Of a stretch of 64,000 nt of DNA, positions 15,678-18,260 are shown piece after piece (position 1 is the stretch's first letter; the number at the start of each line of letters is the position of its first letter). The DNA is taken from NCBI RefSeq assembly GCF_013122565.1, contig NZ_CP053258.1, one strand, 5' to 3'. A program made the translations under genes and the position numbers. The DNA comes from Escherichia coli (GTDB taxonomy: Bacteria > Pseudomonadota > Gammaproteobacteria > Enterobacterales > Enterobacteriaceae). Under the pieces are notes generated by a model. The model saw nothing but the letters and a program-made list of their open reading frames with translations. It was not told the DNA's origin and ran no database searches.

Positions 15678-16967
15678 ATGACGCGCCGTGCTATCGGGGT
15701 GAGTGAAAGACCGCCACTTTTACAGACAATCCCGCTTAGTTTGCAACATTTGTTCGCCATGTTTGGTGCAACCGTCCTGGTGCCCGTCTTATTTCATATT
15801 AACCCGGCGACTGTACTGTTATTTAACGGTATTGGAACGCTGCTGTATCTCTTCATCTGTAAAGGGAAAATTCCGGCTTATCTTGGTTCCAGCTTTGCCT
15901 TTATTTCACCGGTATTGTTACTGTTGCCGTTAGGGTATGAAGTCGCGCTGGGCGGCTTTATTATGTGCGGCGTGCTGTTCTGCCTGGTTTCTTTTATCGT
16001 GAAGAAAGCGGGGACCGGCTGGCTGGACGTGCTGTTTCCACCTGCGGCAATGGGCGCAATCGTTGCCGTCATCGGTCTGGAGCTGGCGGGCGTAGCTGCC
16101 GGTATGGCGGGTTTACTCCCGGCTGAAGGGCAAACGCCAGACTCCAAAACCATCATCATCTCTATTACCACCCTGGCGGTCACGGTTTTAGGTTCCGTGC
16201 TGTTTCGTGGTTTCCTGGCAATTATCCCGATTTTAATTGGCGTGCTGGTGGGGTACGCGCTCTCTTTCGCAATGGGAATTGTCGATACCACGCCGATTAT
16301 TAATGCTCACTGGTTTGCGCTGCCAACCCTCTATACGCCGCGCTTCGAGTGGTTTGCCATTCTGACTATTCTGCCAGCGGCGTTAGTGGTTATTGCCGAA
16401 CACGTAGGGCACCTGGTAGTAACGGCTAATATCGTCAAAAAAGATCTGCTGCGCGATCCAGGTCTGCACCGTTCGATGTTTGCTAACGGCCTGTCGACCG
16501 TGATCTCCGGCTTCTTTGGCTCTACGCCAAATACCACTTACGGAGAAAACATTGGCGTGATGGCGATCACCCGTGTTTACAGTACCTGGGTTATCGGCGG
16601 GGCGGCGATTTTCGCTATCCTGCTTTCCTGCGTCGGTAAACTGGCTGCTGCTATCCAGATGATCCCATTGCCGGTGATGGGTGGTGTTTCGCTGCTGCTT
16701 TACGGTGTCATCGGTGCTTCTGGTATTCGTGTGTTGATCGAATCGAAAGTGGATTACAACAAAGCACAGAACCTGATCCTGACTTCCGTGATTTTGATCA
16801 TCGGCGTCAGTGGCGCGAAGGTAAACATCGGCGCGGCGGAGTTGAAAGGTATGGCGCTGGCGACCATCGTCGGTATCGGCTTAAGTTTGATCTTCAAACT
16901 GATCAGTGTGCTGCGCCCTGAAGAAGTGGTGCTGGACGCAGAAGACGCGGATATAACAGACAAATAA
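15678..16967 (+). CDS. uraA: Uracil:H+ symporter (NCS2/NAT family)
   Basis: ORF trimmed to the ATG at 15678 ([32 protein letters not shown]...); 429 aa; polytopic membrane protein. Confidence 0.95.
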
Positions 16968-17016
16968 TGTACCGACCGGGCAGTGTTGCTGCCCGGTTCA
17001 AACATCATGGGATTCT

Positions 17017-17763
17017 GTGGTAAACTTCTCGCGATTTTGTGAAATCCTGGTTGAGGTATCTCTGAACACACCGGCACAGCTCTCTTTGCCACTTTATCTT
17101 CCTGACGACGAAACCTTTGCAAGTTTCTGGCCGGGGGATAACTCCTCTTTACTGGCCGCGCTGCAAAACGTGCTGCGTCAGGAACATAGCGGTTACATCT
17201 ATCTCTGGGCACGCGAAGGCGCGGGGCGCAGCCATCTGCTGCACGCGGCTTGCGCGGAATTGTCGCAGCGTGGCGATGCGGTGGGCTATGTCCCGCTGGA
17301 TAAACGCACCTGGTTTGTTCCGGAAGTGCTCGACGGTATGGAGCATTTGTCGCTGGTCTGTATCGACAACATTGAGTGTATTGCAGGCGATGAGTTGTGG
17401 GAGATGGCGATTTTCGATCTCTACAATCGAATTCTGGAATCGGGCAAAACACGGTTGTTGATCACCGGCGATCGTCCACCGCGGCAGTTGAATCTGGGAT
17501 TACCGGATCTCGCGTCGCGACTCGACTGGGGGCAGATCTACAAATTGCAGCCACTTTCTGATGAAGATAAGTTGCAGGCGCTACAGTTACGCGCGCGTTT
17601 GCGTGGTTTTGAACTGCCGGAAGATGTGGGGCGTTTCTTGCTGAAGCGGCTCGACAGAGAGATGCGCACGCTATTTATGACGCTGGATCAGTTGGATCGT
17701 GCGTCGATTACCGCGCAACGTAAGCTGACCATTCCGTTTGTGAAAGAAATTCTGAAGTTGTAG
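17017..17763 (+). CDS. hda: DnaA-inactivating AAA+ protein Hda (ORF from first in-frame start; physiological start probably the CUG at 17062)
   Basis: 248-codon ORF; sequence from ...[21 protein letters not shown]... matches Hda; literature reports translation initiation at a CUG giving a shorter protein, and a CTG codon sits at 17062 immediately before NTPAQ. Confidence 0.88.
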
Positions 17764-17778
17764 ATAAGGTGTTTATTG

Positions 17779-17875
17779 TCGGATGCGGCGCGAACGCCTT
17801 ATCCGAACTACGCGAAGTTAATCCATAGTATTCGTAGGCCGGATAAGACGTGGCAAGCGTCGCATCCGGCAATGT
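17779..17875. repeat. REP element pair between convergent hda and yfgD
   Basis: gtcggatgcggcgcgaacgccttatccgaactac and gtaggccggataagacgtggcaagcgtcgcatccggc: inverted REP copies. Confidence 0.8.
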
Positions 17876-17900
17876 GCTTCAACTAGCGATGGAGCACATC

Positions 17901-18260
17901 TTAACCTACGATTTCCAGTACCTGCTCCGGTGGACGACCAATCCGCGCTTTGCCATTCGCGACCACAATCGGGCGCTCCATCAGCTTCGGATTATCCACC
18001 ATTGCCTGAATTAGCGCCTCTTCGCTAAGCGAACTGTCAGCCAGGTTCAGTTCTTTATAAAGATCCTCTTTCTGGCGCATCAATTCACGGGCGCTATTCA
18101 TCCCCAGCATTTTCAGCAAATCGCTCAGCGTTGCCGCATCGGCGGGTGTCTCAAGGTAGAGCACCACTTCTGGCTCCACGCCGTTTTCTTTCAGCAGGTT
18201 CAGCGTTTCCCGGCTCTTTGAACAGCGTGGGTTATGGTAGATTTTTACCTGTTTGGTCAT
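17901..18260 (-). CDS. yfgD: ArsC/Spx-family thioredoxin-fold protein
   Basis: 119 aa; MTKQVKIYHNPRCSKSRETLNLLKENGVEPEVVLYLETP...; conserved N-terminal Cys of the ArsC family. Confidence 0.88.
   Translation of the reverse strand: MTKQVKIYHNPRCSKSRETLNLLKENGVEPEVVLYLETPADAATLSDLLKMLGMNSARELMRQKEDLYKELNLADSSLSEEALIQAMVDNPKLMERPIVVANGKARIGRPPEQVLEIVG

Follow-up and report, generated by a model that had tools for sequence, protein, structure and literature searches.

The stretch of DNA analysed here (the window, 64,000 nt) contains the upp-uraA-hda-arsC(yfgD)-bepA locus of Escherichia coli. Of 5426 complete E. coli genomes, 5425 contain a match of 95-100% identity to a 601-nt query around the hda start site, and the corresponding features are named uraA and hda. 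The 71 nt from 17005 to 17075 recur with at least 99% identity in 5361 of the 5426 E. coli records and with 100% identity in the K-12 MG1655 record NZ_CP010445.1. As this region is nearly uniform among E. coli records, variation within the E. coli population is uninformative on the reading frame. The hda gene of E. coli K-12 (b2496; U00096.3/NC_000913.3) is the same gene with the same CTG codon and differs in nothing from that of the window. The coding features at the start of hda are the following:

15678..16967, + strand: uraA (uracil permease) coding sequence, from the RefSeq annotation carried over from L001/L093, with the stop codon TAA at 16965-16967
17017..17019, + strand: GTG, opening codon and first canonical start of the six-frame ORF; annotated start of hda before 2014; a non-functional start
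17062..17064, + strand: CTG, translation start codon of hda (CTG in 81/81 species, RefSeq coding sequence start, ribosome profiling, EcoGene 3.0)
17062..17763, + strand: hda coding sequence, 233 aa, DnaA inactivator Hda (NF005982 score, RefSeq annotation, PDB 5x06)

On the 5′ side, the six-frame uraA ORF opens at TTG 15636, and the annotated coding sequence of 1290 nt places the start at 15678. On the 3′ side, the minus-strand gene at 17901-18260 is called arsC (arsenate reductase) by PGAP and 'putative oxidoreductase YfgD' in NC_000913.3. Between hda and arsC(yfgD), palindromic repeats of the REP/BIME type are located at window positions 17771-17905, and Rfam gives sub-threshold matches to the REP-derived naRNA4 on both strands there.

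According to the sequence and the ORF listing, the six-frame ORF (17017..17763, + strand) has GTG as its first codon and a product of 248 aa. An earlier note on this DNA had counted 15 codons (17017-17061) upstream of a conserved NTPAQLSL core with a CTG directly before it, had placed the uraA stop 49 bp upstream of the ORF start and had stated that no ATG or GTG lies between the upstream start and the core. The sequence agrees with each of these statements. CTG 17062-17064 adjoins AAC ACA CCG GCA CAG CTC TCT TTG (NTPAQLSL) on its 5′ side, and the uraA stop TAA is separated by 49 nt from GTG 17017 and by 94 nt from the CTG. A search for in-frame ATG, GTG or TTG codons from 17020 to 17061 returned none, which extends the statement to TTG. 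GTG 17017 is the sole in-frame codon of these three kinds in the open frame of 35 codons that leads up to the CTG, and both GTG 17039 and TTG 17051, which lie between GTG 17017 and the CTG, are in the +1 frame. The note's description of the GTG as the annotated start did not stand, since current annotations already begin at the CTG: NC_000913.3 lists hda as complement(2618075..2618776), 702 nt, NP_416991.2, with the CTG start at 2618776 and the older GTG at 2618821, and the RefSeq/PGAP product for E. coli (WP_001307333.1, 233 aa) has its first base at window position 17062. A GTG start with a length of 747 nt belongs to the 2006 annotation of hda. The coordinate origin of NZ_CP102488.1, a complete genome of E. 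coli O15:H18 ST69, lies exactly at the hda CTG, with its position 1 corresponding to window position 17062; possibly, a genome-rotation tool mistook the DnaA homologue Hda for dnaA.

The CUG start of hda is already known, settled for E. coli and present in the reference annotation. The passage on this gene in EcoGene 3.0 credits Su'etsugu 2008 (JBC 283:36118) with the demonstration of the CTG start. By tetracycline-inhibited ribosome profiling (TetRP), Nakahigashi 2016 (PMC4909307) examined hda as a gene whose 2006 and 2014 starts differ by 45 nt and, upon manual inspection, assigned it to the class '3. 2014', meaning a signal at the version-3 (CTG) site. Two of the checks proposed in the earlier note had already been published in this way, with the difference that the profiling drug was tetracycline and not retapamulin or Onc112. 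The crystallised Hda (PDB 5x06) carries a tag followed by MNTPAQ..., and its residues 1-233 are identical to the protein of the window. EcoGene 3.0 also names a second E. coli K-12 gene, yfjD, whose CTG start has been confirmed by start-codon mutagenesis. yfjD is unrelated to hda, but its CTG had been predicted from conservation together with a ribosome-binding site, which is the logic applied here to hda. The claim of CUG initiation made in the earlier note is thus backed by EcoGene 3.0, TetRP, a mapped transcription start site (TSS) and the comparison of 81 species presented below, and we hold it to be almost certain that hda is translated from CUG 17062-17064 to give the 233-aa Hda. What the present analysis adds is the invariance of the CTG and of its Shine-Dalgarno (SD) sequence throughout an order and the observation that the old GTG overlaps an extended -10 element; it is a confirmation rather than a discovery.

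We compared the window with 80 species-representative hda loci ranging from Escherichia to Xenorhabdus/Photorhabdus with 81-99% amino acid identity, resulting in 81 sequences. An alignment of hda 5′ regions across enterobacteria had been suggested in the earlier note; run with these 81 Enterobacterales, it displays coding-type conservation from the CTG on and an unconserved frame upstream of it. The codon aligned to 17062-17064 is CTG in 81 of 81 sequences. Among 109 degenerate columns in which the amino acid is invariant, codon 1 is the sole column that is also monomorphic at the codon level. The 21 other invariant leucine columns use four to six different leucine codons each, with CTG accounting for 43% overall, and synonymous sites elsewhere in hda are close to saturated. 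Because the 81 sequences are related by descent, the other 108 columns, which share the same tree, serve as an empirical control in place of a formal test. A lone CTG would not be significant; the signal above chance lies in the occurrence of CTG in 81 of 81 sequences against heavy synonymous turnover at every other conserved codon. Codon 2 and those after it look like coding sequence, with invariant residues and changing third positions. Judged from this alignment, the reading frame behaves as coding sequence only from the CTG onward.

The open frame upstream of the CTG varies from 3 to 104 codons among the 81 loci. In 33 of the 81 species, the stretch from the upstream in-frame stop to the CTG contains no in-frame ATG, GTG or TTG, and the next canonical start comes at codon 9 at the earliest, within the clamp-binding motif or past it. 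Use of such a start would destroy the clamp motif in these 33 species. An in-frame GTG at position -15 is present in only four sequences (the window, L003, L036 and L067), E. albertii among them. The upstream frame of the nearest relatives (L004-L010) is displaced by a 1-nt indel, 18 of the 81 loci have stops three to seven codons upstream of the CTG, and five Serratia/Yersinia loci have an in-frame stop just 3 codons 5′ of it. In L004 (1440-1500), a GTDB representative under the label E. coli SCPM-O-B-8794 with an Hda identity of 98%, one extra nucleotide between GTG and CTG (GAAATCCCTGG vs. GAAATCCTGG) puts the K-12-type GTG out of frame.

The codons directly upstream of the CTG include a second conserved element, which in 21 loci contains a GTG of its own:

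17053..17057, + strand: Shine-Dalgarno sequence GAGGT, 5 nt from GAGG to CTG
Loci with GTG at codon -2 (n = 21): L046-L049, L051, L055-56, L060, L062-64, L066-67, L069, L071-73, L076, L078, L080-81

GAGG is present in all 81 species; in most of them (74) it is separated from the CTG by 5 nt, in two by 6 nt and in five by 7 nt. In the 21 loci listed, the GTG two codons 5′ of the CTG lies within the SD itself (GAGGTG); Yersinia, Serratia and Erwinia are among the genera that have it. This GTG alternates with GTA inside single genera (Rahnella, Pantoea), while the CTG is fixed throughout. With respect to RNA structure of the leader near the start site, the segment 17033-17100 with SD and CUG folded no better than shuffled sequences (z = 0.51); the fold of 16960-17100 was significant and is dominated by the hairpin behind uraA. 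A search for known RNA families in the uraA-hda spacer gave no match. Translational coupling to a mini-ORF starting at GTG 17039 or TTG 17051 in the +1 frame was considered and rejected, as these starts are unconserved and lack an SD. The +1-frame mini-ORFs (window 17039-17065) end at a TGA overlapping the hda start codon (cTGA), and this TGA follows of necessity from the invariant Asn at codon 2. In Klebsiella- and Enterobacter-type sequences, ATGTTGAGGTnnnnCTGA is found in the same +1 frame as the mini-ORFs. Overall, the +1-frame mini-ORFs are probably meaningless.

The spacer between uraA and hda further contains a terminator-like hairpin and the elements of a promoter:

16974..16998, + strand: GC-rich hairpin after uraA, terminator-like, without a T-run (fold prediction)
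16997..17002, + strand: weak -35 element TTCAAA with an 18-nt spacer (Mendoza-Vargas 2009, Table S1; GGTTC conserved in the alignment)
17018..17026, + strand: extended -10 element TGgTAAACT (alignment block, Mendoza-Vargas 2009)
17033..17035, + strand: TSS of hda at about 17034, leader of about 28 nt (published TSS at +17 from the GTG, 3 reads)

Mendoza-Vargas 2009 (PMC2760140, Table S1) reported the TSS of hda at +17 from the then-annotated GTG, based on 3 reads of 454 sequencing, together with a -35 element CGGTTCAAA, a -10 element GGTAAACT, the entry '-10 ext (TG) yes' and a -10/-35 distance of 18 nt. In another data set, the only TSS assigned to hda has 2 reads and lies 620 nt upstream, inside uraA. 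The pattern TGnTAnnnT occurs at the position of 17018-17026 in 78 of 81 species compared to 4.4% of shuffles, and the published TSS lies where this -10 element would place it. The TG of GTG 17017 is the 'TG' of the extended -10 element, and the old GTG therefore belongs to a promoter element. Since the TSS is located 17 nt downstream of it, GTG 17017 is missing from the mRNA that starts there. A simple promoter scan and a terminator scan near hda called nothing. The promoter was missed because its hexamers match at 8 of 12 positions at a threshold of 9 of 12 and because it depends on the TG extension. At 17016-24, TGTGGTAAA agrees with the relaxed DnaA box consensus TGTGNA(A/T)AA at 8 of 9 positions. 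This candidate was rejected, since the bases conserved among species (TG, TA and the last T) are those of an extended -10 element and positions that a DnaA box requires vary (A/G/C). The 3′ arm of the hairpin overlaps the weak hda -35 element. Its stem differs among species and the arms are, by eye, still complementary (CCGGGCA/TGCCCGG, CCGGGCG/CGCCCGG, CCGGGTG/CACCCGG). Termination of uraA and activity of the hda promoter might interfere with each other.

Once replication has begun, the initiator DnaA-ATP is inactivated mainly through a pathway driven by Hda. Where hda translation starts determines whether the clamp motif is located at the very N-terminus of the protein, and the choice of start codon also sets the translation rate. 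The motif lies here:

17077..17094, + strand: QLSLPL beta-clamp-binding motif, codons 6-11, at the extreme N-terminus

The 248-aa ORF scores 476.6 bits against the NCBIfam model NF005982 (cut-off 268), with model positions 1-235 falling on residues 14-248, and 281.4 bits against TIGR03420 (Hda; cut-off 194.8), where the alignment starts at residue 21. The clamp motif of Hda has been given as 6-QLSLPL-11 (PMC5397184), and this hexapeptide is needed for clamp binding (PMC3836487). It conforms to the Hda pattern QL[SP]LPL. In an alignment of 30 sequences, Q6, L7, L9, P10 and L11 are invariant. The arginine finger R153 of AAA+ box VII is present as well, and S152, R153 and L154 are invariant in the same alignment. 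Among the 150 best representatives from a 50%-identity library, which are mostly non-Enterobacterales, the predicted Met usually precedes QLxLxL by 1-8 residues, with a mode of 3. A start at the CTG puts the motif Q at offset 5, compared to offset 20 in the 248-aa form. Trypsin would release a first peptide of 39 residues (MNTPAQ...NVLR) from the short form and, from the long form, MVNFSR and a peptide of 48 residues; tryptic data that lack upstream peptides therefore say nothing about the start. Counted from the CTG start, QLSLPL at residues 6-11 would correspond to the arrangement of Hda homologues in other orders.

A 248-aa Hda starting at GTG 17017, as in the pre-2014 annotation, would turn the CTG into an ordinary internal leucine codon. 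Automated gene callers pick this GTG (P0002, 248 aa, 3510 member sequences), and no other canonical in-frame start precedes the CTG. However, it is not preceded by a properly spaced SD, the mapped TSS lies downstream of it, the TetRP signal was seen at the CTG site only, and the first 13 residues of the 248-aa ORF are outside the NCBIfam Hda model. The rarity of an in-frame GTG at -15 (4/81) and the extension being frame-shifted in L004-L010 and cut by stops in 18/81 loci argue in the same direction. In addition, an internal leucine codon is unlikely to remain codon-invariant while all others drift, and we regard a start at this GTG as highly improbable. Dual initiation, with the CUG as the main start and a minor 248-aa isoform made from GTG 17017 on mRNA reading through from uraA, seems unlikely. 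Such transcripts would include the GTG, read-through is plausible given that the uraA hairpin has no T-run and was not called by the terminator scan, and the weak TSS assigned to hda inside uraA would fit. Nevertheless, TetRP classed hda as a 2014 site and not as 'multiple', and the GTG frame is unconserved even in Escherichia-like genomes (L004). Any long isoform would hence be lineage-specific and probably without function.

A start at a downstream canonical codon has been annotated too, for example at the TTG of codon 9 in K. pneumoniae KPN_02819 (678 nt), and some automated annotations use it to give 225-aa forms (MPLYLPDDE). This start would strip Q6-S8 from QLSLPL, which is required for clamp binding and RIDA (PMC5397184, PMC3836487). 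Codons 2-8 show coding-type conservation, with invariant residues and synonymous third-position changes. Moreover, codon 9 is TTG in just 29 of 81 species, and we give this alternative practically no credence. Initiation at CUG 17062-17064 accordingly remains our reading.

Gene calls across Enterobacterales predict hda proteins of 221 to 272 aa. Many hda genes of Erwinia, Pantoea, Hafnia, Yersinia and Xenorhabdus are annotated with 235 aa (MLLNTPAQ...; proteins P0006-P0035), beginning at the GTG inside GAGGTG. Hafnia paralvei has hda records of 233 aa and 235 aa in one species. The invariant CTG suggests that all these hda products should be 233 aa, and the order-wide invariance of CTG and GAGG provides a simple rule to mend inconsistent hda gene calls. 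For E. coli nothing changes, as the start is no longer in question and the reference annotation has the CTG.

Taken together, hda expression is best explained as follows. The extended -10 sigma-70 promoter (-10 element at 17018-17026), lying over the old GTG, fires at about 17034 and produces a leader of about 28 nt, which carries the invariant GAGGU SD 5 nt 5′ of the CUG. This strong and optimally spaced SD may position the 30S subunit at the CUG, and fMet-tRNA would then pair with it despite the C-U mismatch at the first position, at about 1% of AUG efficiency. In reporter assays, CUG reached ~1-2% of the efficiency of AUG (bioRxiv 10.1101/063800), and a value of 0.86% of AUG is cited in a passage of PMC11497404. 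The weak CUG has probably been retained by selection, which would keep the Hda level low. In none of the 81 lineages was CTG swapped for GTG, ATG or TTG; that it was never upgraded to TTG, which is synonymous and stronger, suggests selection for weak translation of Hda.

Another essential regulatory gene with a weak, non-canonical start codon is infC (IF3), where AUU makes translation sensitive to the level of IF3. The likeness to the CUG of hda is an analogy only, and the mismatch is at the third position in AUU as opposed to the first position in CUG. By this analogy, the CUG could be actively kept across Enterobacterales as an IF3-sensitive control point that holds Hda low and couples RIDA and re-initiation to the translational state of the cell, a possibility that we consider doubtful. 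Neither our analysis nor the consulted literature contained evidence for hda translation responding to IF3 or being autoregulated. In nine hda genes from outside the Enterobacterales (L083-L091), the starts are GTG in three, TTG in two and ATG in four, all of them choices of gene callers. Non-ATG starts in 5 of 9 distant hda genes compare with ~18% in annotated bacterial genomes (bioRxiv 10.1101/063800), and from this small sample hda may tend towards weak starts outside Enterobacterales as well. In conclusion, a start codon of about 1% efficiency that is frozen across an entire order provides a modest hint of selection for a low dosage of Hda.
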